DNA of 42,766 bases from Candidatus Diapherotrites archaeon CG08_land_8_20_14_0_20_34_12. GTDB taxonomy: Archaea; Iainarchaeota; Iainarchaeia; Iainarchaeales; 0-14-0-20-34-12. Shown piece by piece: positions 215 through 42,711 of this stretch (position 1 is the first letter of the stretch; each line of letters opens with the position of its first letter). The notes under the pieces were generated by a model. The model made no database searches. It had not been told where the DNA came from and was given only the letters and a program-made list of their open reading frames with translations. The stretch is from contig PEXL01000017.1 of the NCBI GenBank assembly GCA_002779065.1, positions 1-42,766 of the forward strand. Reading direction: 5' to 3'. Both the position numbers and the translations under genes were made by a program.

Positions 215-235
215 GAAAGAAATATCTGCCTTTGT
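206..235. terminator. Hairpin plus T-run, possibly a bidirectional terminator
   Basis: GGCAGATA-N9-TATCTGCC followed by TTTGT on the + strand. The complement gives a hairpin followed by TTTCC on the - strand. Confidence 0.3.
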
Positions 236-385
236 AATGTTTGTGACATACTATGCATCATAAATGATGTAGCTTCCTAATTCATCGCTTCTTTATTGAG
301 AAGCTCCAAAGGCATACAGGCCCTGCCCAGACCCACTTCATATTTTATTTTTATAAGAATACCAGCGCTTTCAGCCTTGTATTCT
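215..385 (-). ncRNA. Candidate structured non-coding transcript driven by the motif-1/TATA promoter
   Basis: A TATA (416-409, - strand) preceded by motif copy 1 points leftwards, but no ATG occurs at the leaderless distance. The first ATG (341-339) opens only a 19-codon ORF. The region has locally G+C-rich hairpins (AAGAATAC-N16-GTATTCTT, GCTTCT-N6-AGAAGC, CATCAT-tt-ATGATG). Ends are guessed. Confidence 0.25.
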
Positions 386-408
386 TGATATAAGTTTGTA
401 ATTTGTAG

Positions 409-444
409 TATTTAAATCATGTGAAAGAGTAGATTTCCGGTGAA
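409..444 (-). promoter_or_regulatory. Promoter: TATA box (TTTAAATA on the - strand, 409-416) plus conserved upstream motif copy 1 (427-444)
   Basis: Plus strand reads GAGTAGATTTCCGGTGAA, 10 nt from the TATA box. The architecture matches the HerA, NurA, PolB-like and NTase promoters. Confidence 0.5.
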
Positions 445-524
445 ATATTCACTTTCATCTACTTCTTAAAAGAGACAAATTTCACGCTCATAAAGGTTTA
501 ATAACCTAGTTATCTATTTGCAAT

Positions 525-25532: not shown

Positions 25533-25595
25533 ATTTTTAATTTTAAACGACCCCGGAGGGACTCGAACCCTCAACCCCCAGGTAACTTCACCAAG

Positions 25596-25655
25596 CCTTT
25601 TTCTTTCTTTTCTAAAGAAAGAAAAAGGCTAGGTCTTATCCAAAAAGAAAGAAAA
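25596..25655 (+). repeat. Y-hairpin-R plus mirror-R element, copy A1 (inside the tRNA-Arg intron)
   Basis: CCTTTTTCTTTCTT-ttcta-AAGAAAGAAAAAGG, linker CTAGGTCTTATCC, then AAAAAGAAAGAAAA. Confidence 0.7.
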
Positions 25656-25684
25656 TACTAATTATGCTTATTTTACAAGCAATA

Positions 25685-25749
25685 TTTCTCTTTTTTCTTT
25701 TGGCAACCTACATTTTCTTTTTTCTCTTTCTAAGAGAAAAAAGAAAAGG
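25685..25749 (-). repeat. Y-hairpin-R plus mirror-R element, copy A2 (inside the tRNA-Arg intron, opposite orientation)
   Basis: Minus strand: TTTTCTTTTTTCTCTT-aga-AAGAGAAAAAAGAAAA, linker TGTAGGTTGCC, then AAAAGAAAAAAGAGAAA, which is the exact mirror of R1. Confidence 0.7.
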
Positions 25750-25867
25750 CGGACCGAAGCCTGATGCTCTTCCAATTGAGCTACGGGGCCTAACGTACCT
25801 ATTTAAATAATTATTATAAGAATTTAAAGTAATATAACACAAATATAACTCAAATTTTGGTGATTTA

Positions 25868-26371: not shown

Positions 26372-28744
26372 ATGATTACAAAGCTTAGGTTAGAAAACTG
26401 GAAGACCCATAAGGATTCTGAACTTGAATTTGATAAAGGAACAAATGTACTTATTGGAAAAATGGGCTCTGGGAAAACATCAGTAATTGAAGCTATTTGC
26501 TATGCTTTATTTGGCACATTTCCTGCATTAAACAGGAAAGAGGTTTCAATTGAAGAGGTTATATTAAGCAAACCTTATGAAGAAGATAATGCTTCTTTAA
26601 CACTTGAATTCAGATATGGCAAAAGTAATTATTCCGTTAACAGAAAAATCCTAAAAAAGAAAACAAATCAAGCAACTTTGTATGAAAATGGCCGTTTAAT
26701 TGCCGGCCCTCAAGTTACTGAGGTTAACAAAAAGATTGAGGATATTTTGAAAATAAACTATGAAATATTTTCAAGAGCTATTTTTTCAGAACAAAATCAG
26801 ATTGACTATTTTTTAAAGTTGAGCCCACAGCAAAGGAAGCAGAGCTTTGATGAAATGCTTGCTTTGGACAGATATGAAAGGGTAAGGGCTGGTGCAGTAA
26901 AAGTAAGAAACAAAATGAAAATATTGCTTGCTTTGAAGAAGGATTCCTTAGCCAGATTATTAGAATCATTTGATGAAAAGGAACTAAAGGAAATATTGAA
27001 AAAACTTGAAGAAACTAAAGAAAGATTGGGGTCAATTAATTCAGAAATAAGCCAAAAAGAAAAAATTGTAAAAGAATTTGATATTAAAATAAAGGAATTG
27101 GAAAAAATTCGGGTTCTTTTTGAGAATTCAAGAAGGAAACAGATAGAATACAGCACGAAACTTGATACACTTCAGCAGGAAATTGCCGGATTTACTGCGG
27201 CAAAATATGAAGTTTCTGAAATAAAAAAAGAGATTGAAAAATTAGAAAAAGAGATTGAAAAAATAAATGATGCAAAATCAGAAATAAACAGCTTGAAGGC
27301 CTTAATTGAGGATAAAACAAAAAGGAAAATTTCTTTGGATAAGGTTATTTTATCTATAAAATCAAAAAACCCTTTGGGGGTTAATGAAAAGGATATTGAA
27401 GAAAAGATTTTAGGATTAAACAAAAAAATAAAGGATCTAGAAGAATTGATTGACGGAAGTGCGGAAGATATTGAAAAATTAGAAGAAAAAAGGTCTAAAA
27501 ACAAGGAAGAAATTGGTTGTGTTTGTGAAAGAATAAATAATCATAAAAAAGAACATGACAATCTAAAAGGATTGCATGCAAAATGCCCTATCTGCAAGCA
27601 AGCAGTTGATGAAACACTAAAGAAAAACCTTTCAAAAGAAAATGAAGCTTGCATTTCTAAAGAAGAAAAAGTGCTTGATGGGTTGAAAGGCGAATTGGGG
27701 GAGCTTGAGAAAAAGATTGAACTTACAAGAACTGAAGAAAAAGAACAGAGAAAATTATTTGAAACATTAAATAAAGAAATTCAGGCCCTAGAAGGTTCAA
27801 AAAAAGACATTCAGATGCTGCTTGAGAATGAAAAACAGGCAGAATTGCTAAAAAAAGATATATGCAATTTGAATGAAAAACAGGAGAAAGCTTCGAAATT
27901 AATTGCGAAAGAAGATATTTCTGAGAAAAAGAAGGAAATTGAAAAGAATACTGAGATCTTAAGAAAGATAGAAAAAAGTGAAACTGCTGAAAAGATAAAA
28001 AAAGATCTAAAAGGAATAGAATCTCAATTAAAAGAGATAAAATATGACAGGGATGAAGAGATAGAAATAAGGGCAATTTTTGAAAGGGAAAAAGAAACTA
28101 TAAGAAGTTTAGGTAAAGAGCTTGAAACCAAAACGGAATGGATTAATGAGGCTGGGAAAAGGAAGATTTCAATAGAATCAATGGAAAAAAATATAGGAGA
28201 ATTGAAAAGGGGGATTGAAAATATTGAAAAGTCAAATGAAAAAATTGCTATATTTACCAATACGTTAATTGAAACACAAAATAGTCTCAGAACATTACTT
28301 ATTGAAACAATAAATGATGCAATGGGTGATTTATGGTGGAGAATTTACCCTTATAAAGATTATTCTTCTTTGAAAATAGATATTTCTGAAGGGGATTATG
28401 TTTTGATGATAAAAACCCCTACAAAATGGCAGAGGATTGAGGGATTGTTGAGTGGGGGGGAAAGAAGTGCCGCAGCATTAACAATCAGATTGGCATTCTC
28501 ACTTGTATTGGCATCAAATTTAAGCTGGCTGATATTGGATGAACCGACTCACAATTTAGACAGGATGACTATTTCAAGGTTAAGCCTGCTGATGAGGGAG
28601 CATATGCCAACCCTGATTGAACAAATATTTTTGATAACGCATGATAGTGAGATGGAAAATGCTGCTTCATCCAAGGTTTATTTCCTTGAAAGAAATAAGG
28701 ATGAGGAAGGCATTACTAAGCCGATAGTTCAAGATGTGGAATAA
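26372..28744 (+). CDS. rad50: Rad50 DNA double-strand break repair ATPase
   Basis: Walker A GKMGSGKTS, long coiled coil with zinc hook CPICKQ, signature LSGGERSAAAL and Walker B LILDEPTHNLD. Confidence 0.9.
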   Translation: MITKLRLENWKTHKDSELEFDKGTNVLIGKMGSGKTSVIEAICYALFGTFPALNRKEVSIEEVILSKPYEEDNASLTLEFRYGKSNYSVNRKILKKKTNQATLYENGRLIAGPQVTEVNKKIEDILKINYEIFSRAIFSEQNQIDYFLKLSPQQRKQSFDEMLALDRYERVRAGAVKVRNKMKILLALKKDSLARLLESFDEKELKEILKKLEETKERLGSINSEISQKEKIVKEFDIKIKELEKIRVLFENSRRKQIEYSTKLDTLQQEIAGFTAAKYEVSEIKKEIEKLEKEIEKINDAKSEINSLKALIEDKTKRKISLDKVILSIKSKNPLGVNEKDIEEKILGLNKKIKDLEELIDGSAEDIEKLEEKRSKNKEEIGCVCERINNHKKEHDNLKGLHAKCPICKQAVDETLKKNLSKENEACISKEEKVLDGLKGELGELEKKIELTRTEEKEQRKLFETLNKEIQALEGSKKDIQMLLENEKQAELLKKDICNLNEKQEKASKLIAKEDISEKKKEIEKNTEILRKIEKSETAEKIKKDLKGIESQLKEIKYDRDEEIEIRAIFEREKETIRSLGKELETKTEWINEAGKRKISIESMEKNIGELKRGIENIEKSNEKIAIFTNTLIETQNSLRTLLIETINDAMGDLWWRIYPYKDYSSLKIDISEGDYVLMIKTPTKWQRIEGLLSGGERSAAALTIRLAFSLVLASNLSWLILDEPTHNLDRMTISRLSLLMREHMPTLIEQIFLITHDSEMENAASSKVYFLERNKDEEGITKPIVQDVE

Positions 28745-28761: not shown

Positions 28762-28959
28762 TTAGGCAGCTTCTGCTTCCTGGTTCTTCAAGCGGGTAAT
28801 ATAACCGGCAATAACATTCCTTTCTTCTTTTGAATAAGGCATCTCTAATTGCTGTAATACTTTTTTGTTTTTATCAAAATCTGCGCTAAATCTATCCCCA
28901 ATTAGCTCTAAAAGATTCTCGGCTTTTGCTTTTATTGCTTTTGAAATCGCTTTTCCCAT
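28762..28959 (-). CDS. rps17e: 30S ribosomal protein S17e
   Basis: MGKAISKAIKAKAENLL...FDKNKK...RNVIAGYITRL. The start is taken at the MGK Met. Confidence 0.75.
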   Translation of the reverse strand: MGKAISKAIKAKAENLLELIGDRFSADFDKNKKVLQQLEMPYSKEERNVIAGYITRLKNQEAEAA

Positions 28960-28974
28960 AGTAGGTATCACCTA

Positions 28975-29184
28975 TTAAAAATCAATTATTTCAATAATTC
29001 CATTAGGATATTGCCTTAGCACACTCAAAGGCAGAACTTTTTTATCTAATTCTTTTTTTGCTATATTATAACAAGTATCTTCCTTATCCACTTTCAACAA
29101 AGCAGGAGCCCCAAACGATAATTGCAATGCTCTTGCACTTATTAAACGTGTTTTTTCAAAACGTGTCAATACCATTTTCTTCAC
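28975..29184 (-). CDS. rpoK: DNA-directed RNA polymerase subunit K (Rpo6)
   Basis: LTRFEKTRLISARALQLSFGAPALL is the hallmark Rpo6 segment. Confidence 0.8.
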   Translation of the reverse strand: MKKMVLTRFEKTRLISARALQLSFGAPALLKVDKEDTCYNIAKKELDKKVLPLSVLRQYPNGIIEIIDF

Positions 29185-29336: not shown

Positions 29337-30851
29337 TTAGAAATAAAAATCAGCATGATGGTTATTGCAAATAGGCATCAAAATGTCTTTTTTCAGGAAG
29401 AAGTCGGGAGTCAAATATTCTCCTTGTATAAAGATTTTATTACAAAATGAGTCGATTGCAATGATTCTTGTTCCTTCTTTTTTCATGATTTCCGACCATT
29501 CTGCAATCAAAGACTGTTGCTTGCTCCTGAATGACTCTGCAATCACTTTTGAATAATACTGGTTCTTTGTATCAAGCAAAAAATTAGGCACTTTATTAAA
29601 GATGGCATTTAACAAATTTGAATATTGTTTCATGAAATAATAATTCAAATCAGATTCCAATAACATCAATGCATTCAATTTATATTGATGCAAGAATATT
29701 TTTTCATAGGATTCAATATTTGAATTTATTTTTTCTGATTTTGAGGATATCATTTCTATCGCATTGCTCAAAAATGATTTTTCATTTCTGCAAGACCAGT
29801 GTAACTCATTATTATTGGGTAAAATTTCAGCAAATCCTTCTTTCTGCAAGATTTTTGCATCTTCAATTGGGATTTTATAAGAATCGCCAAAGAAGAATGG
29901 CCCTATTGGGATATTTTTTGTCAAGAATTCTGCTTTTCTTGCCAATCTTCTTTCCTTATTTGAATTTCCAAGGTGGAATTTGTTTGAAAAATCTGAAAAC
30001 CTTGAATCATAGTAAAAAGCATCCGATAAAAAACGTACAGAAACTAGTGAATTTGGAAAAATATTCCCAGAATAAATATTTTCAGGGATGCAGCAAGCAC
30101 AATTATTTGTTTCTGAACCGATATTTTCTTTTATAATAACCTTTGGCCAAATCTTGGAGAAATCCAATTCCATAAGGTTTTGGAATCTGCCCCTAACCGA
30201 TTCATTTGAGATGAATATATTTGAATTATCTTTAGTGGGAAATATTTTTTCCTGCAAAAATAAGCTATTTTGGATTAGCATTTCAAGTTGATGCCTTTTT
30301 TTCAGTGGAACTTTCTGAAAGGGAATTGCAAGGAGATTGGAAAGCAGCAAGCAATTTGTTAATTGTTTTGCTGCCTTCTTATCCTCAGAACGCAGATTGG
30401 TTATGAGAGAATCCAGAGGGCTCTCAAAAAACTCTAGGAGAAGCAAGGGAAACGAAAACATATTTTGTTTATTAGGAATATCTGCATCCAAAGTAAATAG
30501 ATCAAAATAACTCCATCCATTAAGGAGTAAGAATTGCCTTTCTGGTTCAAGCATAAAGGTTTCTTTCTTGGCAAAATAACATCGCAATTCTTTTAATTTA
30601 GAATAATTCTTGCCAATAACCTTTATATTTTTTTTATTTTGTAAAAGTTTGAATGAATTAATTCCTAAAAGATTGATTTTTTCATCAAGAAGTTTTTCAT
30701 TTGAATCAGATTTGTGAATGAATAAAACTGGGTAAAAATCATAATTTTTAGTTATTTTGGTTTCTCTGTTTGAAAATTCAACTGTTATTCTTCTTTTTTC
30801 ATTTAAGTATGTTGCGTTGCTTAACCAAAGTGTGCCGGGTGTGGAAGACAT
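29337..30851 (-). CDS. Truncated, apparently inactivated family-B DNA polymerase-like protein
   Basis: By eye: a PolB N-terminal-like DFYPVLFI; a motif-B-like KLNALMLLESDLNYYF (compare KLLANSFYGYYG); and a motif-C region AESFRSKQQSLIAEWSEIMKKEGTRIIAIDSFCNKIFIQG (compare AESVTAWGR...VLYIDTDGLYATIPG) in which DTD is replaced by DSF. Confidence 0.45.
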   Translation of the reverse strand: MSSTPGTLWLSNATYLNEKRRITVEFSNRETKITKNYDFYPVLFIHKSDSNEKLLDEKINLLGINSFKLLQNKKNIKVIGKNYSKLKELRCYFAKKETFMLEPERQFLLLNGWSYFDLFTLDADIPNKQNMFSFPLLLLEFFESPLDSLITNLRSEDKKAAKQLTNCLLLSNLLAIPFQKVPLKKRHQLEMLIQNSLFLQEKIFPTKDNSNIFISNESVRGRFQNLMELDFSKIWPKVIIKENIGSETNNCACCIPENIYSGNIFPNSLVSVRFLSDAFYYDSRFSDFSNKFHLGNSNKERRLARKAEFLTKNIPIGPFFFGDSYKIPIEDAKILQKEGFAEILPNNNELHWSCRNEKSFLSNAIEMISSKSEKINSNIESYEKIFLHQYKLNALMLLESDLNYYFMKQYSNLLNAIFNKVPNFLLDTKNQYYSKVIAESFRSKQQSLIAEWSEIMKKEGTRIIAIDSFCNKIFIQGEYLTPDFFLKKDILMPICNNHHADFYF

Positions 30852-30872
30852 ACTAAAACTGCAGTTTTAAAG

Positions 30873-30939
30873 TATTTAAAGAAAAGCAAAGAGAGTGGAT
30901 TTCCGGTGAAATTTCTAAAGCTAAGTGATTTCCGCTGAA
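30873..30939 (-). promoter_or_regulatory. Promoter of the PolB-like gene: TATA (30873-30880), motif copy 2a (30893-30910) and a tandem degenerate copy 2b (30924-30939)
   Basis: Plus strand reads GAGTGGATTTCCGGTGAA and AGTGATTTCCGCTGAA. The TATA is 21 nt from the ATG, and motif 2a is 12 nt from the TATA. Confidence 0.55.
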
Positions 30940-30945
30940 CACCTT

Positions 30946-31623
30946 TTATTCATAGAGCACTGAATCTGCGTGCTGGCAATATTTTCTATATATAGCATAT
31001 ATTAAAGAAGCGTATTTTATCGGCAAGGCGTCTGCCAGACCATAAATATTCTGCTGCATCTCCATATGTCTTATTCTGCCTTCTTCAGGGATTAATCCTC
31101 TTATTGCCCCAACATCCACGATTGCCCTTGATGCTCTTTCTTGTTGATTTTGTTTTTTGCCCTTAAAATAAATCAACCAGGGCTCAAGAACTTTTCTTCC
31201 TGTATCAATCCACAGTTCATTGTTGTGTAGTATTGCCAGATCTCTAGCTAAACCTGCTGCAATAGAGCGTGCATTTTGAAATGAATCTATCATAGAAGGG
31301 TCTTTAAACAAATCAACTGACATATATACATTATCTTTTGATAAATCCCGCACAAATAAAAAATCATCAGATAGGTGATCAGCCTTGCCCGTCGGAATTC
31401 CCAAATCTCTTAATTTGCCCAGTAAACTCCTATGCCAATCCGGATTTTGGCCTTCGAACTGCTTAGCCAAAAAATATTTTCTTCTTTGTGGGTTCCCCCT
31501 GTGAAATATATCAATCCTAGTGGTATCCATTCCTGGCTGTATGACCCATCCTTTAACAAGCTTTTGCTCTCTTGCCTGTGCTGCTTTTTTTCTATGTGCT
31601 ACGCTTCTTTTTGGCCAAGGCAT
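30946..31623 (-). CDS. Uncharacterised Arg-rich protein, paralogue of 35407-36051 (family A)
   Basis: Shares IPT.K, LF.RDLSK, DL..DP, ARDLAI.HNN, EPWL.YF and ASRAI.DVGAI with the 214-aa paralogue. Lies 41 nt downstream of herA. Confidence 0.6.
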   Translation of the reverse strand: MPWPKRSVAHRKKAAQAREQKLVKGWVIQPGMDTTRIDIFHRGNPQRRKYFLAKQFEGQNPDWHRSLLGKLRDLGIPTGKADHLSDDFLFVRDLSKDNVYMSVDLFKDPSMIDSFQNARSIAAGLARDLAILHNNELWIDTGRKVLEPWLIYFKGKKQNQQERASRAIVDVGAIRGLIPEEGRIRHMEMQQNIYGLADALPIKYASLIYAIYRKYCQHADSVLYE

Positions 31624-31664
31624 ACTAATAATTTGGACAAATATTTAATATTACTTACCGAAGA

Positions 31665-34600
31665 CTATGGGAGAAATTCTGCTGTTTCTTCCCTTGTTTT
31701 GTCTGCAGATTGCTCAAATTTCAGGGCTGCATCTTCCAAGGAAATTTCGTGCTTGCTTGGCATTGATTTTCTGTACCTTACCTTAAAAAATAATGGATAG
31801 CCTGTTGCTTCTCCAACAAGTAGGGCTTCCCCTACCTGCAATGAATTTATTATGCCAAAGCTTCTTTGGTCAATTCCTTCTGAAGATTCTGCTATATGCT
31901 TCAGATCATTTGGATTTGTAATACGCAGAATCATATGGGTTGAGCATTGTGATAGTGTTGTTGTATCTAATTGAACTGGCCTTTGGGAGATAATACAAAG
32001 AGACATACCAAACTTTCTTCCTTCCCTTGCAATTGTCCTTAAAATAGAACGGGAGATTGCTGATTCTTCTGAAACATGTTCAGGACACCACTGGTGTGCT
32101 TCCTCTGCAATTAAAAGGGTTGGAGGAATTACATTGGATTTCCTTTCATCAAACAGCTTGTTTGCAAAATAACTTACTATCATCTGCTTTTTTTTCATAT
32201 TAACTACATCTGAGAAATCAATTATTGTTAAAGTTCCTGGCTTAATTAATTCGGAAATTGCGGGCATATCTGTCCTTGCAAATAAATTGTAGGACATTAA
32301 ATCATCAATCCAGCCAAGTAAGGGGAATTTTGAATTCTGTTTTATATTATTATCTTTTAGGATTGCATCCTTTACATGTGACCAATCAAAAGGGCCTAAT
32401 CCTTTCCGCATATCCTCTTTCAAACAAGATAAAATTCTGCTCAGATCTCTTTTCTGCGGTGCGGTCAAACCAGGAATAATTCCTGCTAACATATGAACAC
32501 TCATTTTAGGAACAGCAATTCTGATATTTTGTGCTTTGATGATTTTTGTTCTGTCAGAAAAATCCTCATATTTGCCATCTTTCACTGGCTGGGCAAAGCT
32601 TGAATACTCGCCATGAGGGTCCAAAACCACTATTGCAATTCTGCCTTTTTGCTTTGGCCTATTAAGGAGTTCTTCAATTAGGCAAGCTGTGGAAAAACTA
32701 TTGTGAATAATCAAGTTATTTGCAACAAAATTGTGCTCTTCCACACACAAATCATAAACATACTTTTTGTCATAATCAACCTCTTCAACAGATTTAATCG
32801 CATCAAAAAACAAGCCATCAGAAACAAGAGTATGTAAAAAATCGAGTTTCTCCCTGATTTCGGGCAATTGCTTTTCTTTATCTATTGAAATAATAAAAAG
32901 ATTGTATAAAACCTTGTAAATATTTGAATATTTTATTGTATTTAGGGGATTATAAGAATAGCCATCCAAATATTGACCCCTAAATCCACTTCTGCAGCAT
33001 AATTCTCCTATCTCATAGCCAAGATTTTTGCACAAAACTCTAATTTGATTGGCTATTTGCTTAAAATCTAAATTAGTTATTGTATCTATCCCTAAATCTG
33101 ATTCATTTTCTAAAGCCAGAACATTTTTGGCCAAATAAAAGGTGTTTATAGTTGGTTCTGTTAAACCCCTTACTACTCTTCTTGCAGTAGTGTTTGAAAC
33201 CTTTGTATTCTTGGCAATTTTGTTAAAATCATATTTAGAATAGGCATTCACAAGTATTTGCTTTGCATCTTCTTCTGTCAAGTTAGGCATAACATAAAAT
33301 AATTTTTTTGTTTGGGTTATTGCGCTATGAATGTTCGCATAATTATGCTCAAATTCAGCTAGTAAAGATCTTAATGAAATAGGAGTCGGATCATCATGCC
33401 TTTCATTTAGTGACAAATAATTGGCAATATTGACAAATTGGTTTTGGGTTAAATTGAGCTTATTTTTTAGGAAACCTAAGGTATGTTTAATGTTGGGAAT
33501 TACCCTAACGTTTGAATTTGATTTTTTTAGAGAACATTCCTTGAGCGCTTTTGCTTTATAATCTATTAAAAGAGTTAATTCATTATTTAATATGTTTAAA
33601 TAATCTGCACCTCCTAAAAATAATCTGCCATATTGTTTGCCCTTAACTGTTTTTATCTTTCTTATTGGGTTTAATTTAAAGCGCAAAACTATTTGCTCTA
33701 TGTTGTCTAACATTTGCTTGCTGGCAAGGGTTATCTCAATATGTGATTTCTTGGAACAAACATAACCATCACAATCAATAAATGCACTCAAAAAAGCAGC
33801 CAAAACTGATTTTTTACTTAATAGAATTTCCTTGGGCACATATTTGGTCCAACTTGAATTAGTAAAACCTAGCTTAAACAAGCTATCTGCTAAAAGCTTG
33901 TTATAAATCCTAAGTTCAATATCCCTCTTTCTGTTAATATTTGCGACAATGCCCAACAGTTTTGCCAGGTTACTAAAATCGTCCCTAATTAAATTAGAAC
34001 TATTGGTAAAACTAATAGTTTGACCTCCGTTATGTCCTTCTGCTAACAAATAGGCCATGAACCTTGCAAAATTTTCATCAACCATAATCTTTGCAGGAAT
34101 TCTAGAAGACCGTACTTTTAATGTTTTTATTTTAGAGCATATCTCCAAAAAATTCATATCTAATTTGTCACAAATTAATTTAAGATTATTTAGAGAAACT
34201 CCAGGGTAGGATAATAAATATTGCAGTTTTCTTGATGGCATATTAACAATTCTAGAGAACTCCTTCATTGAATATTTTTCAAAGAGTTTTGACTTTAATT
34301 CAGCTAAAATGGATTTATCATCAACCCTGACCTTAGTAGAATTCTCCCATAATTGTACAAAATCAATTATTTGTTCCGAACCCGCTATTTGAGGCATTGC
34401 CGTAATTAGATAATCTTTTTTAGCAAGATTTTTAGCTTGAACCCAGTTTATTTGCTCATTTAGAATAGGTATTGGGTGTTCTGGAGTAACTAATAATTGT
34501 TTGCCTGTTCTTGTTTTGATTTTGAACATTTTTTTAGGGGCTTTCCTGCGCATAAATGCCTTAATTTCAGAAGCTATTGGTTGATTATTTTCATCCAATG

Positions 34601-35261
34601 AAATTACTTTCAAATTATTTGGGTTAATATCACACAATTCAACATTGTCTTCAATTACTTTTTTATTTTCCAAATGCTTGTCGACAAGCTCGCCAAGCTT
34701 TACTGTGTCACCATTACCCAACAATATTTCAAGATTATAATCTCCGCATTTTCCGGAACCAGACATTGCCATAATTGCAAGGTGTTTTTTTAACATGCGA
34801 GTCATATTCAATTTTACTGGAAGATCATGATGTTCAACATTGCCTAAATGCATTCCAGATTCATCAAAATGGAAGAATTTCTTCAGTTTTTCATTGTCTG
34901 CAATCCTTACCTTTGAACCAGGACTTGGGGGGAAACTTGGCCTGTAAAAATTATCGCCGGAATAAACACCTAAAGGTTTTGTGTTTGCTACAAGATATTC
35001 CCATTCATGCACAGGGAATTGCTCAAACAACGCTTGGCCCTTTGATTCAAATTCCTTTACTGAATCAGCCCTTTCAAAATATTTATTAGTTCTAAAAACA
35101 TCCATTACCAATGCAATAAAATTCCCACTTGCATTTTCGATCTCAACAAATTGCCCTCTATGTATCAAACCGGAGGTAACAACAAAATCTGCAGTGCTAG
35201 GGCTTGGAGAATTAATTGCAGATATAACTGTTCCAACTGTTTGTGCATTCTTTGCGACCAT
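31665..35261 (-). CDS. herA: HerA hexameric DNA translocase/helicase, interrupted by an intein in the Walker A motif
   Basis: Exteins give a P-loop GSGK|S, Walker B LLIAEEAHQW, and ISQRPVQLDTTTLSQCSTHMILRITNPND. The spliced product would be 515 aa. Confidence 0.85.
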   Translation of the reverse strand: MVAKNAQTVGTVISAINSPSPSTADFVVTSGLIHRGQFVEIENASGNFIALVMDVFRTNKYFERADSVKEFESKGQALFEQFPVHEWEYLVANTKPLGVYSGDNFYRPSFPPSPGSKVRIADNEKLKKFFHFDESGMHLGNVEHHDLPVKLNMTRMLKKHLAIMAMSGSGKCGDYNLEILLGNGDTVKLGELVDKHLENKKVIEDNVELCDINPNNLKVISLDENNQPIASEIKAFMRRKAPKKMFKIKTRTGKQLLVTPEHPIPILNEQINWVQAKNLAKKDYLITAMPQIAGSEQIIDFVQLWENSTKVRVDDKSILAELKSKLFEKYSMKEFSRIVNMPSRKLQYLLSYPGVSLNNLKLICDKLDMNFLEICSKIKTLKVRSSRIPAKIMVDENFARFMAYLLAEGHNGGQTISFTNSSNLIRDDFSNLAKLLGIVANINRKRDIELRIYNKLLADSLFKLGFTNSSWTKYVPKEILLSKKSVLAAFLSAFIDCDGYVCSKKSHIEITLASKQMLDNIEQIVLRFKLNPIRKIKTVKGKQYGRLFLGGADYLNILNNELTLLIDYKAKALKECSLKKSNSNVRVIPNIKHTLGFLKNKLNLTQNQFVNIANYLSLNERHDDPTPISLRSLLAEFEHNYANIHSAITQTKKLFYVMPNLTEEDAKQILVNAYSKYDFNKIAKNTKVSNTTARRVVRGLTEPTINTFYLAKNVLALENESDLGIDTITNLDFKQIANQIRVLCKNLGYEIGELCCRSGFRGQYLDGYSYNPLNTIKYSNIYKVLYNLFIISIDKEKQLPEIREKLDFLHTLVSDGLFFDAIKSVEEVDYDKKYVYDLCVEEHNFVANNLIIHNSFSTACLIEELLNRPKQKGRIAIVVLDPHGEYSSFAQPVKDGKYEDFSDRTKIIKAQNIRIAVPKMSVHMLAGIIPGLTAPQKRDLSRILSCLKEDMRKGLGPFDWSHVKDAILKDNNIKQNSKFPLLGWIDDLMSYNLFARTDMPAISELIKPGTLTIIDFSDVVNMKKKQMIVSYFANKLFDERKSNVIPPTLLIAEEAHQWCPEHVSEESAISRSILRTIAREGRKFGMSLCIISQRPVQLDTTTLSQCSTHMILRITNPNDLKHIAESSEGIDQRSFGIINSLQVGEALLVGEATGYPLFFKVRYRKSMPSKHEISLEDAALKFEQSADKTREETAEFLP
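32700..34748 (-). mobile_element. 683-aa intein with a LAGLIDADG homing-endonuclease domain
   Basis: Cys1 directly follows MSGSGK (CGDYNLEILL). The C-terminus is NNLIIHN with +1 Ser restoring GKS. LAGLIDADG blocks are FMAYLLAEGHNG and FLSAFIDCDGYV. Hint block B is LLVTPEHP. Confidence 0.85.
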
Positions 35262-35282
35262 AATTAACTAAACAAAAAGTTG

Positions 35283-35318
35283 TTTATAAAGGATTGCGAA
35301 GAGTAGATTTCCGCTGAA
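35283..35318 (-). promoter_or_regulatory. herA promoter: TATA (35283-35290) plus motif copy 3 (35301-35318)
   Basis: Plus strand reads GAGTAGATTTCCGCTGAA. The motif is 10 nt from TTTATAAA, which is 21 nt from the herA ATG. Confidence 0.55.
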
Positions 35319-35324
35319 TGGCCC

Positions 35325-35400
35325 CTTTCTTTTCTTAAAAAGAAAAGAAAGACCCCAGGGTTCAAAGAAAAGAAGGAAAATTTTGCAAGAAAAAAGAAGG
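35325..35400 (+). repeat. Y-hairpin-R plus mirror-R element, copy B (with a third purine tract)
   Basis: CTTTCTTTTCTT-aaa-AAGAAAAGAAAG, linker ACCCCAGGGTTC, AAAGAAAAGAAGG, AAAATTTTGC, then AAGAAAAAAGAAGG. Confidence 0.7.
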
Positions 35401-35406
35401 ATAAAA

Positions 35407-36051
35407 TTATTTTCTATATTTTTTATACGTAGCTTCTATCTGACTTCGATAATCTGGGAAGTGTTCAGTTAATCTGAACAAATTAGGCCTCATCGGATCA
35501 GAATCAAAATCAGCATATGCCTTGCGGCTGTAATAGATTGCACCAACATCAGTTATTGCCCTTGATGCGATATGCGCTGATTCGTGTTTTGGGCTCCGGA
35601 AATAAAGCAACCAAGGTTCTGTAACACTCCTGCCTTTAAGTATAAATAATCCGTTATTATGCATTATTGCCAAATCCCTTGCAATGCCTTTTATTAATGA
35701 TTCGGCATTCACACACCCTTGAATAATATCAGGATCGAAATGTAAATCCAAAGCAATTGTTCTGCCGCCTTTTGACAAATCCCTTGCGAAAAGATATTTT
35801 CTTTCTGAAATTCCCTCCACCTTGGCAGTTGGAATTTTTAATTTCCGCAATCTGGAAAAGATGGCTTTATGCCTTCTGGCAACAGCACTTTCAGAAGCAG
35901 AAGTATGCTGAAAAAATCTTTTTCGTAAAAGATGTTTCTTGCGATAACCTCTGCCTGAAGCAAATGCAAGAACCTCTATGGCATCCCTTCCACTATTCCT
36001 TGAACCTGTCTGCCTTGCTTTGGCAAACCTTATTCTGTTTGGCTTAGGCAT
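35407..36051 (-). CDS. Uncharacterised Arg-rich protein, paralogue of 30946-31623 (family A)
   Basis: See the paralogue entry. The N-terminus MPKPNRIRFAKARQ is basic. Confidence 0.6.
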   Translation of the reverse strand: MPKPNRIRFAKARQTGSRNSGRDAIEVLAFASGRGYRKKHLLRKRFFQHTSASESAVARRHKAIFSRLRKLKIPTAKVEGISERKYLFARDLSKGGRTIALDLHFDPDIIQGCVNAESLIKGIARDLAIMHNNGLFILKGRSVTEPWLLYFRSPKHESAHIASRAITDVGAIYYSRKAYADFDSDPMRPNLFRLTEHFPDYRSQIEATYKKYRK

Positions 36052-36107
36052 ACCTGAATTATGCAGGCATTAGATTTTATCTTTTGCTGATAAATAGCAC
36101 ATTACTT

Positions 36108-36536
36108 TTAGAGTTCATTCTTGCAGATAAATACAAGCAGCTCAACAAGCACCTGATTCATTGAATAAGCAAACAGGCCAATTGCGCCAAAAAAGAAAAG
36201 ATCTGTAGGGGTTGGGGTTAATTTGAACTGGGCAAGCATTGCAAATGTTGCAGTATATATTGCAACAAGCAAAATGGCAATATTTATTGCATGCCTCTTG
36301 AAATTCCAGCGTTCAAGCCTAACTGTTCTGCCAAGCAAAGCTTCAATTGCAGGCCTTGCTGCCAAGAGCCAGGCTGCAAAAAAGAGGATTGCATTTACAA
36401 AAAAAGGAATATAGGAAAATTCTTGGCTTGGTGTTTCAGGAACGCTTGCAACAAGGTAAGCAAGCCAATATGCAATAAGCGTTCCAAATAATAAAGTGAT
36501 TTTTATAAAACCAAAAATTATTTTCATTGCATCCAT
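36108..36536 (-). CDS. Small integral membrane protein (about 4 TM helices)
   Basis: Hydrophobic profile. No family recognised. Confidence 0.5.
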   Translation of the reverse strand: MDAMKIIFGFIKITLLFGTLIAYWLAYLVASVPETPSQEFSYIPFFVNAILFFAAWLLAARPAIEALLGRTVRLERWNFKRHAINIAILLVAIYTATFAMLAQFKLTPTPTDLFFFGAIGLFAYSMNQVLVELLVFICKNEL

Positions 36537-36610
36537 AAAAGAAACCAGATAACATACTTAGAATTAGACATTATTAAAAATAAATGCTAGCTTAAGTTAT
36601 TTGGTCAACT

Positions 36611-37177
36611 ATGCCAAAAAGTCCTAATGCAAGAAGAGGTTGGCATGCTGCAAAGATCGCTTCCTTTAGGGAAGAATTAAAGCGCAGGCCTGTGCAAAAA
36701 AAGGATTACCCAAAGATAATAGAGCATTATAGGGAAAGGATTGATGATTGCTTTGATTCTAATATGGAAACAGATGGCTTGAGTGGCTAGGTAAGGGGTT
36801 ATATTGAATTTGACAAAGGCGTTGACAGAATGTGGCATGATTTTAACCAATTAGGGCTTCGCAATTGGGAATAGCATAGTGTAGTGCCACAGATAAGGGA
36901 AAGGTATTTCGAGCTGAAAGCTCGATTCCTTAATTTAATAAAAGGCGAGGCAAAAGCATATTGTGGATTTATTGCAAAAGACATTTATGAAAGTGCAAGG
37001 CGCGGAAGGCCTTTCACCCTAAGCACATTCCAGGAAGCTGCAAGGAATCAAATAGAGCATGCACTCGAATTGCTACCGGCAACTGAAAGGAATGAGGTAC
37101 TGGAAGCATATGGAAAGGGCATGGGAATAATAGAAGACGCCTTGGGGAAGAAATTAAATGGTTTAAAAAGGCCTTGA
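36611..37177 (+). pseudogene. Single 189-codon reading frame interrupted only by two in-frame TAG codons. It is a pseudogene, three small ORFs, or a read-through gene.
   Basis: Sub-ORFs are 36611-36790 (MPKSPNARRGWHAAK..., 59 aa), 36830-36874, and 36884-37177 (GTG start, 97 aa). TAGs lie at 36788-36790 and 36872-36874, and the final stop is TGA. All three sub-ORFs are in the same frame. Confidence 0.4.
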
Positions 37178-38248
37178 ATCTCTTCGCATTAATCGGAAAT
37201 TAGTGCCTAATTTATCTGCTATTTTATTAAAAATAAATTCAATTTCGTCTGGATTTAAACCTGCCCTTAAATCTGCTTCAATTAGGGGAGAAGGAAATGC
37301 ATATTCCCTGTGCAATGAAGATACTTGATAAATTACTGAAGAAATTTTATCTATAAATTCTGTTAGTTTTTGACTTTTTTCATTGCTTAGGAATTCAATC
37401 CTTAAAGCACGGTCGTATTTTGAGGGTTTTAAATAACAGACATTTACTGCTTTAGAATATTTTTCATTGAAATCTGAAAGAATAGGGTGTTGTTCAATAT
37501 CAACTGTGTAAGGGAAGGCCGCAGTTCTTTCTTTTTCTTTAAGCAAATGATCCAAAAGAACTGAATCATAACAATCATCAAATTTAGATTTATTTTGCTC
37601 GGAAACAAAATTTTGTTGAATTATTTCCCTGAATCTTGAGCCCCGAGAATCTTCAATGCAGCCAATTAAAATTGTGCCATTGTCTTCAGCTGCTTTATAT
37701 AAACTTTCAAATAAAGAAATTACTTTTGAATATGAGCTTGTTACCTTTGAATCCTTCCTTGGCTTGTCCGCATGTTGCGGGATGATTGAACCATCAAGCA
37801 GGCAGTATTCTGGCTTGTGTTTTTCAATTATCTCTTTTGCCAAACTGATCTCTTCAAACAAGCGGTATAAGCTCTTTGAAACAGAACTTTCATCCAATTG
37901 TAAAGCGCCATTAATAAAAATCGGTTTTGGGAATGAAAACATTTCTGGATAATATTCTGCCTTTTCAAGAGTGCTATTTTTATAAGAAAAAAGGACTGAT
38001 GCTGTCCTTATAAAAAGTAAATCAAACGAATATAGATTCTTGCCAACAAAACCGGAATCAACCGCCGCAATTCTTGAATTTAAATGATGTTCAGCTATTG
38101 GAAAAACCAATTGCTCTTCGAGCAAAGGGCTTTTTCCTTCATTTTTTAAATATTTTTTTGGGAGAATTTCCTTAACAGCTTCGCTTCTCTTTGATTCATT
38201 TATTTTTATATTTTCAACTGCTTCTGAAATGATTTTGAGTGGATTCAT
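37163..38248 (-). CDS. nurA: NurA-like 5'-3' nuclease
   Basis: IAAVDSGF and CLLDGSIIPQ resemble NurA catalytic Asp motifs. The size (361 aa) and herA neighbourhood fit. The start is taken at MNPLKII, 24 nt downstream of a TATA. Confidence 0.6.
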   Translation of the reverse strand: MNPLKIISEAVENIKINESKRSEAVKEILPKKYLKNEGKSPLLEEQLVFPIAEHHLNSRIAAVDSGFVGKNLYSFDLLFIRTASVLFSYKNSTLEKAEYYPEMFSFPKPIFINGALQLDESSVSKSLYRLFEEISLAKEIIEKHKPEYCLLDGSIIPQHADKPRKDSKVTSSYSKVISLFESLYKAAEDNGTILIGCIEDSRGSRFREIIQQNFVSEQNKSKFDDCYDSVLLDHLLKEKERTAAFPYTVDIEQHPILSDFNEKYSKAVNVCYLKPSKYDRALRIEFLSNEKSQKLTEFIDKISSVIYQVSSLHREYAFPSPLIEADLRAGLNPDEIEFIFNKIADKLGTNFRLMRRDSRPF

Positions 38249-38272
38249 CTGAAATAAAGTGGAAAAATGAAG

Positions 38273-38308
38273 TATATAAAGAAGTGGAAAGAGTGGATTT
38301 CCGGTGAA
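38273..38308 (-). promoter_or_regulatory. nurA promoter: TATA (38273-38280) plus motif copy 4 (38291-38308)
   Basis: Plus strand reads GAGTGGATTTCCGGTGAA, 10 nt from TTTATATA. Confidence 0.55.
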
Positions 38309-38313
38309 CCCAT

Positions 38314-38394
38314 CCTTTTCTTTCTTTCGCAAAGAAAGAAAAGTCTAGGTGCTGACAAAAGAAAGAAAACTTAGTTGCCAAAAGAGAAAGAAAA
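38314..38394 (+). repeat. Y-hairpin-R plus mirror-R element, copy C (with a third purine tract)
   Basis: CCTTTTCTTTCTTT-cgc-AAAGAAAGAAAAG, linker TCTAGGTGCTGAC, AAAAGAAAGAAAA, CTTAGTTGCC, then AAAAGAGAAAGAAAA. Confidence 0.7.
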
Positions 38395-38562
38395 TTATCT
38401 TGAAGATAATTTATTCTGCTGCCTGCTCCAGACTTTATTCGGGGTTTTTTTAAGCCAAGCTGCATAAGCGTCAATAAATTGCAGTCTTTGTTCAAAATTC
38501 CTTTTCTTTTCCTCTTCAAGCTCCCTTAAGTCTGATTTTGTAAGTTTTAGTAATTTTTCCAT
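38395..38562 (-). CDS. Small 55-aa protein overlapping the end of the NTase gene (MEKLLKLTKSDLRELEEEKKRNFEQRLQFIDAYAAWLKKTPNKVWSRQQNKLSSR)
   Basis: The ATG overlaps the last 16 nt of the upstream ORF. The composition looks protein-like. It is below the ORF-track cut-off. Confidence 0.4.
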   Translation of the reverse strand: MEKLLKLTKSDLRELEEEKKRNFEQRLQFIDAYAAWLKKTPNKVWSRQQNKLSSR

Positions 38563-39155
38563 AAAATCCTCTCGGCTTCCTTTTGGACCATTAATTCCTT
38601 AATATGTGATTTTAACAAATCAATATCCAAATGTTCTTTAAATACTTTATATAAGTGCCTTGCATCTTCAAAATCCTTCTCGCTACCTAACTTGAGCTTG
38701 AATGCAATCTGCAATTCTATTTCAGAAGTATTCAATTTATTGCTATTTAACAAAACTTCAACTTTATTTATTAAAGAATAATTATTATATTTTGTTTTCG
38801 GGAACTTTATCTCACAGTTTGGGATGAAAGTATTTTTTAATGCAAACCGGATTGCAAGCTTTTCTTTCAGGTAATTTTCATAGGCATCCTTGGCATCTGC
38901 TGCATTTAAGCAGTCAAATTCTTTCACCAAATCATTCCAAAATTCCTGAAATTTGCTAAACGGCATTTCTTCGATGAAAAAATCAACATCTTCTGTTTCC
39001 CTGCTTCTTCCAAATAAAATTGCAATATAACCAGAAATGATCACATAATCAATTTTGTGTTTTTTAAGCATCTTTACAAATTTAAGCACAAAGCGATCAA
39101 GCGGAGAAAGCTCTTTTTTGAATGAAATTTTATTTTTAGAAAAAGCCAATTCCAT
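38547..39155 (-). CDS. Nucleotidyltransferase-fold protein (AbiEii/MNT-like pattern)
   Basis: ISGYIAILFGRSRETEDVDFFI resembles the G[SG]-x-G-x-R-x-T-x-D[IV]D motif of the minimal NTase fold. Confidence 0.45.
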   Translation of the reverse strand: MELAFSKNKISFKKELSPLDRFVLKFVKMLKKHKIDYVIISGYIAILFGRSRETEDVDFFIEEMPFSKFQEFWNDLVKEFDCLNAADAKDAYENYLKEKLAIRFALKNTFIPNCEIKFPKTKYNNYSLINKVEVLLNSNKLNTSEIELQIAFKLKLGSEKDFEDARHLYKVFKEHLDIDLLKSHIKELMVQKEAERILWKNY

Positions 39156-39174: not shown

Positions 39175-39212
39175 CATTTAAATTGGTTTTCAAGGAGCAG
39201 ATTTCCGCTGAA
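39175..39212 (-). promoter_or_regulatory. NTase operon promoter: TATA (39175-39182) plus motif copy 5 (39195-39212)
   Basis: Plus strand reads GAGCAGATTTCCGCTGAA, 12 nt from TTTAAATG, which is 19 nt from the ATG. Confidence 0.5.
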
Positions 39213-41536: not shown

Positions 41537-42301
41537 TTAAGGGTTTCTCCTTCTTGGTGCTTTTCTTTCAACTAATTCTAATTGTTTAGCTAGCACTGAA
41601 AGATTAGATATTGTGCCCAAAGCATTATTTACTTCTTTAGGATTTTTCATAAAATAAATAGATTCCTGAAATGCTGCTATTCCAGATAAACATCTTTCAT
41701 AAGGAGACATATGTGCGCTTGCGGTTATTGCAGAAATTCTTCCTGGAAATTCTGTTTCTTTCAGTGATGGAAAATCCTTTTCAAATTCTAAACCAATAAC
41801 TGCTTTTTTAATTCCTGATAAAATACCATTTACTAAAGAATCAGTTCTTCTTCTTTCTTTGTGTGCTTCGCTTTTTACGCCTTTGGCCAGTTTGGGGTAA
41901 TTTCTCTCTGGGTTGCTTCTTCTTGGCAAATCTTTTTCAGGTTTACCTTTAAGTGGCATCCTTCTTCCAAGCGCTTGCCCAGCCGACCTGTTTATTGTTT
42001 CAAGGGCATTTGCTCGCTCTGCTGATGTGCCCATGGAATAAATTGCTTCATTAAATGCGCCGATAAGTGCAGTTTCCCTTTCAGTACGGAAAAAATGCGG
42101 GCTCAGGGTTATTGCTACAATCCTGTCAAAGACAGGAGTATTTTTTATTGAGGGAAATTCTTCTTCAAGGTCTGCTTCAATATGAGCTACCGCAGTAAGC
42201 AATTTCCTCCTTCTAGCTGAACGGTCAGTGCTTCTTCTTAGACTAATGCCTCTTTTTGGATTTCGTGCAACCGGTTTTCTTGCAGAAGTTCTTTGTGGCA
42301 T
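41537..42301 (-). CDS. Arg-rich protein with an internal tandem domain duplication (family B)
   Basis: The start is taken at MPQRTSARKPVARNPKRG. Two roughly 75-aa repeats share FPS.K.T.F..RI.AIT.S.H...ER....AF.E.IY.M......NAL.TI. Confidence 0.55.
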   Translation of the reverse strand: MPQRTSARKPVARNPKRGISLRRSTDRSARRRKLLTAVAHIEADLEEEFPSIKNTPVFDRIVAITLSPHFFRTERETALIGAFNEAIYSMGTSAERANALETINRSAGQALGRRMPLKGKPEKDLPRRSNPERNYPKLAKGVKSEAHKERRRTDSLVNGILSGIKKAVIGLEFEKDFPSLKETEFPGRISAITASAHMSPYERCLSGIAAFQESIYFMKNPKEVNNALGTISNLSVLAKQLELVERKAPRRRNP

Positions 42302-42391
42302 ACTAAAAGAATACGCACAAATCAATTAAAGATATTTCGGCTTGTAAATCCTTTTTAAAGGTTCTCGTTTATTATAATGATATTGATTTCT

Positions 42392-42568: not shown

Positions 42569-42612
42569 ATTCGTTTTTTAAATCCTATTCTAAAGAGTTA
42601 TTTGTACAAAAT

Positions 42613-42702
42613 GGGCCCGTAGCTCAGTTGGCAGAGCACCAGACTCTTAGTTCAATAAAAGGAGCTATCTGGGTGTCCTGGGTTCGAATCCCAGCGGGCT
42701 CG
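42613..42702 (+). tRNA. tRNA-Lys(CUU) with a 17-nt intron (42650-42666) at position 37/38
   Basis: GGGCCCG TA GCTC AGTTGGCA GAGC A CCAGA CT CTT A [gttcaataaaaggagct] A TCTGG GTGTC CTGGG TTCGAAT CCCAG CGGGCTC G. BHB central helix is CTCT/GGAG. No CCA is encoded. Confidence 0.9.
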
Positions 42703-42711
42703 TTACCGAAC

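Follow-up and report, generated by a model that had tools for sequence, protein, structure and literature searches.

The stretch of DNA considered here (42,766 nucleotides, hereafter called the window) is one end of a 63.8-kb contig of Candidatus Diapherotrites archaeon CG08_land_8_20_14_0_20_34_12, a member of the Iainarchaeota, and several groundwater assemblies contain this locus as well. It encodes the HerA ATPase, the NurA nuclease and a Rad50-like SMC ATPase, dispersed among lineage-specific genes, and several of these genes stand behind one and the same promoter motif. The locus therefore raises the question of what the motif connects: a HerA/NurA module with unfamiliar partner proteins, as put forward in the original prediction made from the letters of the DNA, or something larger. 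We consider it likely, with a probability of around 70%, that the region is one piece of a DNA replication/repair regulon that extends across the Iainarchaeota, laid over a conserved repair neighbourhood that gathers insertions, and driven by a putative activator.

The motif, TTCAsCGGAAATC, is present in six exact copies, all on the minus strand of the window (Table 1). When up to two mismatches were allowed, eight matches were obtained where 1.76 are expected, and none of 100 shuffled sequences reached that number. At each of five promoters the promoter-proximal copy lies 15-17 nucleotides (nt) upstream of a TTTAWA TATA box. Four of these promoters precede protein genes, namely nurA, herA, the gene for a 504-amino-acid (aa) protein that resembles family-B DNA polymerases (PolB-like), and a gene pair for a nucleotidyltransferase (NTase) and a 55-aa protein; here the ATG comes 21-26 nt past the TATA box, so that the mRNAs would be leaderless. 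The conserved part reaches 18 nt (TTCAsCGGAAATCyrCTC, separated from the TATA box by 10-12 nt), which puts the element at around -48 to -65 from the start. The two copies before the PolB-like gene stand 29 bp apart. Only the promoters listed in Table 1 have the motif: it precedes none of the around 40 other genes in the window, and the scan found no copy before rad50 or before the gene pair for the 142- and 214-aa proteins. The separate motif-plus-TATA promoters that had been predicted for nurA, herA, the PolB-like gene and the NTase pair are thus confirmed by six exact copies in a fixed geometry, as is the isolated position of rad50 on the other strand, without a copy of the motif.

The motif extends far beyond this locus. 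A scan of Joint Genome Institute (JGI) metagenome contigs for the motif followed by N8-12 and TTTAWA yielded 37 loci with around 33 non-redundant motif-plus-TATA promoters, nearly all with an ATG 21-39 nt past the TATA box; one of these (L142) is a probable false positive. Chance matches must be rare, because the same pattern returned no match in 2.9 million viral contigs (IMG/VR). On basis of Pfam, 13 of the associated genes relate to cellular DNA transactions: MCM (two), RadA/Rad51, Hel308-like (two, one of which stands behind an open reading frame (ORF) of 87 aa), a DEAD/ResIII helicase, HerA, NurA (two), PolB-like (three) and an N6_N4 DNA methyltransferase. Another eight encode nucleases of mobile elements (four TnpB and four LAGLIDADG endonucleases) and two encode toxins (PIN and ParE), while around nine promoters lead to no known gene, only to small unknown ORFs or to sequences that look like non-coding RNAs (ncRNA-like). 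Genes for translation, metabolism or transport were found behind the motif in none of the loci. In addition, an exact copy precedes a DHH/DHH_CID/DHHA1 (GAN/RecJ-like) gene in L126, and within the 10 kb that adjoin the window the motif precedes another LAGLIDADG gene. Genome contigs were scanned with the 18-nt motif alone, which gave mostly chance bacterial matches; among the matches listed two were informative, both in named Iainarchaeum genomes, one before a DNA methylase gene (L011) and one at the locus edge, after an OB-fold gene (L093). A further match (L109) lies in a coding region and was dismissed as chance. Since the motif also precedes MCM, RadA, Hel308-like, DEAD/ResIII, GAN/RecJ-like and DNA methyltransferase genes, a lineage-wide regulon is indicated. 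The motif can no longer be regarded as a private link between HerA and NurA, as it marks these genes as well as DNA methylases, TnpB and homing endonucleases.

Relatives with synteny were recovered at seven loci (L127, L128, L136, L169, L170, L171 and L172), and across the Iainarchaeota the conserved order is nurA, herA, a variable slot, the PolB-like gene, rpoK, rps17e and a convergent rad50. In L127, where the counterpart of the 504-aa protein is 67% identical, the order reads nurA, a gene for a 406-aa unknown protein, herA (with intein), a gene for a 237-aa kinase-like protein, PolB-like, rpoK, <rad50 and <EF-1beta, in which '<' denotes the opposite strand. In the more distant L128 (32% identity) it reads <PTH2, <136 aa, nurA, 40 aa, herA (no intein), a Na/Ca exchanger, PolB-like, rpoK, rps17e and <rad50. 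The PolB-like gene directly follows herA in L136, it is surrounded by HicAB, two unknown genes and Fic in L169, and L170, L171 and L172 show PolB-like, rpoK, rps17e and <rad50. In the relatives rpoK/rps17e always lies directly downstream of the PolB-like gene, which is invariably found in the rad50 block, with herA upstream wherever the contig reaches far enough. What lies between nurA and herA, and between herA and the PolB-like gene, differs from one relative to the next, and these intervals are insertion hotspots.

The motif is kept along with the gene order. L127 has it with one mismatch each before nurA, herA and the PolB-like gene, and L128 has a diverged form, GCACCGGAAACCCGCCCC, at the same places; L136 carries an orthologous copy at herA, and in L170 and L171 the motif has drifted further. 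The doublet at the PolB-like promoter is retained in L127, L136, L146 and L128. Comparison with L127 makes clear that the motif persists at orthologous promoters while the flanks diverge. The synteny check therefore corroborates the predicted linkage of nurA, herA, PolB-like, rpoK, rps17e and rad50, and the predicted shared regulation is corroborated by the motif at the promoters of the nurA, herA and PolB-like orthologues in the relative with 67% identity, and in diverged form in the one with 32%.

The same does not hold for the interleaved genes, which had been suspected to be module partners. None of the relatives examined has the NTase pair, the membrane protein, the 214-aa copy or the plus-strand ORFs, all of which have the appearance of insertions at a hotspot of variable content. 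The NTase, which is missing from the corresponding position in L127 and L128, matches DUF2204 with 27.1 bits (above the cut-off of 20.3 bits) and AbiEii weakly (E 0.005). Its partner is a DUF8150 protein and not a HEPN protein as in MNT-type pairs; the two genes overlap by 16 nt and are presumably co-transcribed. The PolB-like and the kinase-like proteins are the sole unknowns with recurrent linkage, and judged by their gene neighbourhoods they are plausible functional partners of the repair machinery.

The selfish genes with the motif encode TnpB (L134, L145/L157, L149, L150), LAGLIDADG endonucleases (L129/L156, L131, L159, L164, L168), PIN (L130) and ParE (L160). In the IS605-like elements the motif sits just inside a subterminal hairpin (gagaaatctacatct..aagatgtagatgaaag), and at window positions 445-460, before the motif, a remnant of it (aagtagatgaaagtg) is left.

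In the mechanism that we propose, the region would be the counterpart, in the Iainarchaeota (Diapherotrites), of the archaeal double-strand-break (DSB) repair neighbourhood, with separate leaderless units, each behind the same element, in place of a single operon. One sequence-specific factor would bind the element just upstream of the B recognition element (BRE) and TATA box and activate the genes together, and the doublet might put the PolB-like gene under cooperative control. The regulon could be controlled either by the cell cycle or by damage. The selfish elements (IS605-type TnpB, LAGLIDADG, PIN, ParE and the NTase/DUF8150 pair) carry the element as well, presumably timing their expression with the DNA transactions of the host.

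Several points weigh against this interpretation. The scan pattern demanded a TATA box, so that the metagenome matches are promoters by construction, but gene function was not selected for; moreover, the taxon of most of these matches is not labelled and follows from sequence similarity. Some genes that one would expect in such a regulon lack the motif: rad50 in the window, and hjc, the dnaG-like Toprim gene and tmk in the adjoining 10 kb. No regulator was identified, and in the loci examined neither orc1/cdc6 nor an evident transcription-factor gene stands behind the motif. The preference for activation over repression has a single basis, namely the position of the element upstream of BRE/TATA. 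With respect to the partner proteins, an AT-rich, TATA-like stretch lies inside the 41-nt gap between herA and the downstream gene for a 225-aa protein, which weakens the case for co-transcription of the two. Finally, in L174 the homologous kinase-like gene lies between two aminoacyl-tRNA synthetase genes, which is a counter-example to its linkage with repair genes.

Table 1. Positions of the motif copies, genes and other features in the window.
Feature	Position	Strand	Basis or remark
tRNA, 92 nt	42612-42703	+	ARAGORN, anticodon not called; Rfam tRNA 58.3 bits
262-aa protein	41537-42325	-	no family match
Motif TTCAGCGGAAATC, NTase/55-aa pair	39200-39212	-	TATA 39177-39182, ATG 39155
DUF2204 NTase, 202 aa	38547-39155	-	Pfam PF09970, 27.1 bits
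DUF8150 protein, 55 aa	38395-38562	-	precomputed Pfam PF26477
Pyrimidine-/purine-tract palindromic repeat module, directly upstream of nurA motif	38310-38395	-	dispersed repeat family
Motif TTCACCGGAAATC, nurA	38296-38308	-	TATA 38275-38280
NurA nuclease, 361 aa	37163-38248	-	Pfam NurA 4.3e-12 and gene call
Small lineage-specific ORFs, 59 aa and 97 aa, between nurA and herA	36611-37177	+	
Hydrophobic (membrane) protein, 142 aa	36108-36536	-	no family match, no motif upstream
214-aa protein	35407-36051	-	paralogous to the 225-aa protein
Pyrimidine/purine palindromic repeat module, upstream of herA motif	35320-35400	-	
Motif TTCAGCGGAAATC, herA	35306-35318	-	TATA 35285-35290
HerA, 1198 aa including intein	31665-35261	-	HAS barrel and DUF87 ATPase
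Intein in HerA, 683 aa	~32700-34748		LAGLIDADG
225-aa Bud32/RIO-like kinase-fold protein (predicted)	30946-31623	-	AlphaFold 2 and Foldseek
Tandem motif pair, PolB-like gene	30927-30939 and 30898-30910	-	TATA 30875-30880
504-aa degenerate family-B polymerase-like protein (predicted)	29337-30851	-	Foldseek, hidden Markov model (HMM) alignment
rpoK (Rpb6) and rps17e	28762-29184	-	gene calls
Rad50-like SMC ATPase	26372-28744	+	CPIC zinc hook (CxxC); convergent with rpoK-rps17e
tRNA gene with intron of ~170 nt	25548-25790	-	Rfam tRNA 42.4 bits
Metallophosphatase, 212 aa	20673-21311		YfcE-like
Sixth motif copy, ncRNA-like sequence	432-444	-	TATA 411-416; first ATG 69 nt after TATA
ncRNA-like sequence, ~150 nt	~235-398	-	no credible ORF

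The repair genes themselves could be annotated as follows. HerA possesses the ATPase (Pfam DUF87, 3.6e-24) and, as a weak match, the HAS barrel of the HerA-NurA system. Its Walker A loop is interrupted between GSGK and S by the intein; the spliced product of 515 aa agrees in length with the intein-free orthologues in L128, L136 and L169 (511-515 aa). Spliced HerA scored best against HerA models of the DSB-repair type (159 and 147 bits), yet below the curated cut-offs, and it obtained 119 bits with the anti-phage HerA model of NCBIfam; PADLOC HerA models matched as well. NurA starts at the ATG at 38248 and not at the TTG at 38332, as its orthologues start with MNPLRIISEAVENIK, and this NurA-domain nuclease is encoded together with herA, at a distance of 1.9 kb here and adjacently in L128. 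The C-terminal half of the Rad50-like protein matches NCBIfam arcadin-4 (Rkd4) with 139 bits, below the cut-off and nearly as well as it matches the Rad50 models. In L128 (5671-5793) and L169 (104-280) a zinc-ribbon ORF of 40-58 aa (CPQCG...CAKCG) overlaps the start of herA; the window lacks it, and there the motif promoter abuts herA directly.

A single operon with mre11 and rad50 does not exist here, given the separate promoters and the location of rad50 on the other strand. The underlying expectation, that herA, mre11, rad50 and nurA form one operon in most archaea, was itself too broad: the abstract of the relevant report describes this for most hyperthermophilic archaea (PMC2288612). The predicted lack of Mre11 stands, as none is encoded in the 42.8-kb window or on the adjoining 10 kb. 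The window's only metallophosphatase is YfcE-like and too short to be Mre11.

With regard to the genes without annotation, the 225-, 214-, 504-, 142-, 97-, 59- and 262-aa proteins had no match in profile searches with Pfam, NCBIfam and PADLOC. The gene for the 225-aa protein starts 41 nt past the herA stop codon, and its product is, as predicted, a paralogue of the 214-aa protein (40% identity, E 3e-41, BLASTP). A word-indexed homology search with the 225-aa protein returned the query alone, and an exhaustive HMM search of 1.84 billion cluster representatives recovered nine representatives of the family. An AlphaFold model built from the family alignment (mean predicted local distance difference test (pLDDT) score 82.9, predicted template modelling (TM) score 0.80) had its best Foldseek matches in the Protein Data Bank (PDB) with PRPK/Bud32 and Rio1 (E 1e-6 to 1e-4, TM ~0.53-0.58), including PRPK 7szc (E 1.3e-6), KEOPS Bud32 8k20_B and Rio1 4otp and 1ztf. 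The 225-aa protein is thus predicted to adopt a kinase fold, which the comparison of folds detected and a PDB profile search did not; sequence searches of the family against Pfam, NCBIfam and the PDB gave no match.

Like Bud32/PRPK (KEOPS) and the RIO kinases, the family combines a compact two-lobed fold of ~220 aa with an Asp at the DFG position (D170, invariant together with P148, W149, R166, N192 and Y212) and a beta3 Lys, which is nearly invariant in the second long strand. Unlike these kinases, it has no conserved catalytic loop HxD...N (the columns after helix alphaE read IDT, ILK, ISG, ...) and no sequence match with a kinase profile, its N-terminal tail is rich in Arg/Lys, and its genes lie beside herA, rad50 or GAN instead of kae1. 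Considering the lack of the catalytic loop, an active kinase is less likely than a nucleotide-binding pseudokinase or a regulatory subunit, and the modelled fold is not that of a nuclease; a nuclease substitute in the slot after herA is therefore not supported. The kinase-like gene follows herA in the window and in L127 and is divergent from rad50 in L172, and in L126 it is the third gene of a tightly packed operon, behind an exact motif, with the GAN/RecJ-like DHH and polyprenyl synthase genes. The 207-aa protein of L169 was considered and is not a member of the family.

The view that the 504-aa protein is a degenerate relative of family-B polymerases was substantiated. The top 50 Foldseek matches of its model (mean pLDDT 71) were all family-B polymerases (E 1e-6 to 2e-4), which points to a PolB palm/fingers fold, although the global TM score with PolB structures was just 0.25-0.28. 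The profile of the family, which comprises eight members found in a word-indexed homology search, aligns with Pyrobaculum PolB (5mdn) at E 0.019, collinearly across the regions of motifs A, B and C, with LDFSKIWP against LDFSSMYP for motif A and RIIAIDS against VIYGDTDS for the region of motif C. Within the family motif A is kept as (D/N)FSxIWP, with Asp changed to Asn in half of the members, and motifs B (Kx3NSxYG) and C (YGDTDS) are lost. The protein ends shortly after the motif C region, which leaves no space for a thumb domain, and the set of features that characterizes an active family-B polymerase (motifs A DxxSLYPS, B and C, exonuclease motifs and thumb) is not present. None of the eight members matched Pfam DNA_pol_B, even at E values up to 10. 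The model and the alignment hence support a thumbless, catalytically degenerate family-B polymerase-like protein. A 507-aa protein of L174 turned out to be methionyl-tRNA synthetase (MetRS) and not PolB-like.

The closest known counterpart is the inactivated PolB of the PolB2/Dpo2 group, which sits with PPB2 (arCOG07300) and an inactivated RadA (PMC4104785, PMC11791011) and likewise combines a PolB fold with decayed catalytic motifs and a repair-associated genomic context. The 504-aa family is far more degenerate, lacking the Pfam DNA_pol_B match and the thumb, and it has a conserved NCxCCxPEN cysteine cluster of its own. Its neighbours are herA, rpoK and rad50 instead of PPB2 and inactivated RadA: in the window and in seven further loci the gene has herA or variable genes on its 5' side and rpoK-rps17e on its 3' side. 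The family is not the PolB2 group, from which it is set apart by gene neighbourhood and Pfam profile and not by a sequence comparison with Dpo2.

The lack of Mre11 in the window and on the adjoining 10 kb might also be taken to mean that Mre11 was lost and that the 225-aa and PolB-like proteins serve as replacement subunits in a remodelled HerA-NurA-Rad50 end-resection complex. This would agree with the constant place of the PolB-like gene in the rad50 block, with the occurrence of the kinase-like family next to herA in two genomes and next to rad50 in a third, and with passages in the literature that tie Bud32/KEOPS and Rio1 to recombination or UV responses (PMC10989989, PMC7744417). We nevertheless judge it improbable, given that neither protein has a nuclease fold (one resembles a kinase, the other a polymerase), that mre11 may lie elsewhere in the genome, and that the 225-aa family is missing from the interval between herA and the PolB-like gene in L128, L136 and L169. 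A bolder combination is offered tentatively and is rather unlikely. In it, an E2F- or SOS-like programme with one activator site ties replication genes (MCM, GAN) to those for recombination and repair (RadA, Hel308, HerA, NurA), the HerA-NurA-Rad50 machinery has a thumbless dead PolB and a Bud32/RIO-like pseudokinase as lineage-specific subunits that replace Mre11 or regulate the complex, and TnpB elements, homing endonucleases and toxins copied the site so as to be expressed during active DNA transactions of the host. A HerA-based defence or selfish module, in which HerA, the NTase/55-aa pair, the kinase-like protein and the membrane protein act against viruses or in abortive infection, was the other suggestion of the original prediction. 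The matches of HerA with anti-phage models (NCBIfam and PADLOC), the weak AbiEii-type match of the NTase, the toxin-antitoxin genes (HicAB, Fic) in the same intervals of a relative (L169) and the PIN and ParE toxins behind the motif elsewhere could all be read in this way. However, HerA scores higher on the repair-type models and has nurA as its neighbour in L128. The block keeps its synteny with core genes (rpoK, rps17e, EF-1beta, rad50) even between deeply diverged genomes, conservation alongside HerA is not seen for the accessory genes, and the same motif drives MCM and RadA. A dedicated anti-phage effector of HerA was not encountered either: the neighbouring proteins showed neither Sir2 nor DUF4297 (Pfam), and none of them, including the supposed partners, had a PADLOC match. 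A defence role for the locus is accordingly highly improbable.

Finally, the motif itself could be something other than a transcription-factor site, either a replication-origin box of the origin recognition box (ORB) type, bound by Orc1/Cdc6, or part of a dispersed mobile repeat. Its core recalls the archaeal mini-ORB boxes, which we take to read TTCCAGTGGAAAC, a palindromic pyrimidine/purine repeat accompanies it at the herA and nurA promoters and recurs in a tRNA intron, and the IS605-like elements carry it internally. Against this, the copies are always oriented with the gene and keep their fixed distance to the TATA box, with the ATG 21-39 nt later before protein genes; they are dispersed across more than 38 kb and a large number of contigs and never form inverted pairs around an AT-rich unwinding region; and they are kept at orthologous promoters despite the divergence of the flanks. 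The copy of the palindromic repeat in the tRNA intron has no motif, which makes clear that motif and repeat are separable. A replication origin was rejected on the basis of the orientation, spacing and dispersion of the copies and the lack of inverted clusters, and an origin box or mobile repeat as the nature of the motif is hardly credible. The replication/repair regulon thus remains the preferred reading.

Some further observations concern sequences beside the motif. A conserved module of ~70 nt lies just before it at many promoters of cellular repair genes (RadA, Hel308, HerA, NurA, MCM), whereas the promoters of TnpB and LAGLIDADG genes lack it. The module consists of a Y-tract, a GCAACTA-like spacer, a Y-tract, a loop and the complementary R-tract, and outside the window it occurs in L158, L140, L136, L153, L154, L147, L138 and L127. 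It might act as a terminator/insulator or as a second regulatory site, or it might be a triplex-prone element or a repeat like the miniature inverted-repeat transposable elements. The tRNA gene with the repeat was missed by ARAGORN and by a gathering-mode scan of the whole window; its intron consists mostly of the palindromes found upstream of the herA and nurA motifs (TTTTCTTTCTTT-AGA-AAAGAAAGAAAA, plus a GGCAAC..CCTAG spacer). The 92-nt tRNA close to the right end of the window is probably another intron-containing one.

The sixth motif copy faces a conserved structured ncRNA-like sequence. The stretch 235-444 (-) of the window is conserved in L139 (1129-1330) and L144 (480-683, -), its predicted multi-hairpin structure shows 11 compensatory base-pair changes, and it matches no Rfam family. 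In another assembly (L166) a DDE_Tnp_1 transposase is encoded just past this sequence, where the 63.8-kb contig ends. In L132 and L147 no ORF follows the motif and TATA box; instead there is a conserved hairpin of short length (GCTGAGCA..TGCTCGGC versus AGAGTGC..GCACTCG) and then a tRNA gene; this hairpin may be a small RNA of the same regulon.

An MP(x)P(x)R/K N-terminus followed by an Arg/Lys-rich tail recurs in lineage-specific proteins of the repair block and its surroundings that are not related to each other. They are encoded at 30946-31623, 35407-36051, 36611-36790 and 41537-42325 of the window, where they lie in stretches of higher G+C content (0.37-0.39 versus ~0.32), and at 527-1444, 1600-2835 and 4069-5289 of L127. 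The shared N-terminus may be a common tag or a sign of foreign origin. The 262-aa protein contains an internal duplication of two ~100-aa segments with the form ...FPS(I/L)K.T.F..RI.AIT.S.H.......

Compared with the herA-mre11-rad50-nurA cluster of Sulfolobales and Thermococcales, the window has a HerA with a HAS barrel and an FtsK-like ATPase, a NurA-domain nuclease and a zinc-hook Rad50, all within 12 kb, and herA and nurA are still adjacent in the distant relative L128. It differs in that separate leaderless units with a shared upstream motif take the place of the operon, that four unrelated genes separate nurA from herA, that rad50 lies on the opposite strand without the motif and mre11 was not found in the window, and that the block always includes a PolB-like gene and rpoK-rps17e. 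The two uncharacterised families, one a degenerate PolB and the other with a Bud32/RIO-like fold, are candidate accessory factors of archaeal end resection.

To our knowledge, the coordination of replication and repair genes in archaea is largely unknown outside the Sulfolobales, and we know of nothing in this respect for uncultured DPANN lineages with reduced genomes. An 18-nt element that is common to MCM, RadA, Hel308, HerA and NurA and lies at a fixed distance from the TATA box would constitute a directly testable regulon. A close parallel is the Orc1-2/DDRE damage regulon of the Sulfolobales, in which DNA-transaction genes likewise have a short promoter element in common and a single activator is proposed (PMC6061795); regulons of this type are characterized by an ANTTTC-containing element that an Orc1/Cdc6 paralogue binds. 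The blocks TTTCRG and TACTC of the 20-bp consensus published there, AATAGTTTCRGWDTACTCWS, recur in aTTTCAGCGGAAATCTACTC here (PMC6061795). In the Iainarchaeota the spacing between them is 6 nt larger, the element precedes the TATA box instead of standing 23-55 nt before the ATG, and the targets are MCM, RadA, Hel308, HerA and NurA instead of ups, ced, tfb3 and dpo2. This partial resemblance could be due to chance; a search of the DNA examined did not reveal orc1/cdc6, and an Orc1/Cdc6 paralogue as the binding factor is a lead and not a finding. A broader parallel is offered by the SOS regulon of bacteria with its LexA box and the E2F/MCB regulons of eukaryotes. Since the promoter architecture here is that of archaeal TBP/TFB, the likeness is an analogy only, but in these systems, too, one cis-element coordinates replication and repair genes and mobile elements co-opt the same signal, of which the TnpB and LAGLIDADG genes behind the motif would provide a clear example: mobile nucleases that have adopted a regulatory signal of their host.

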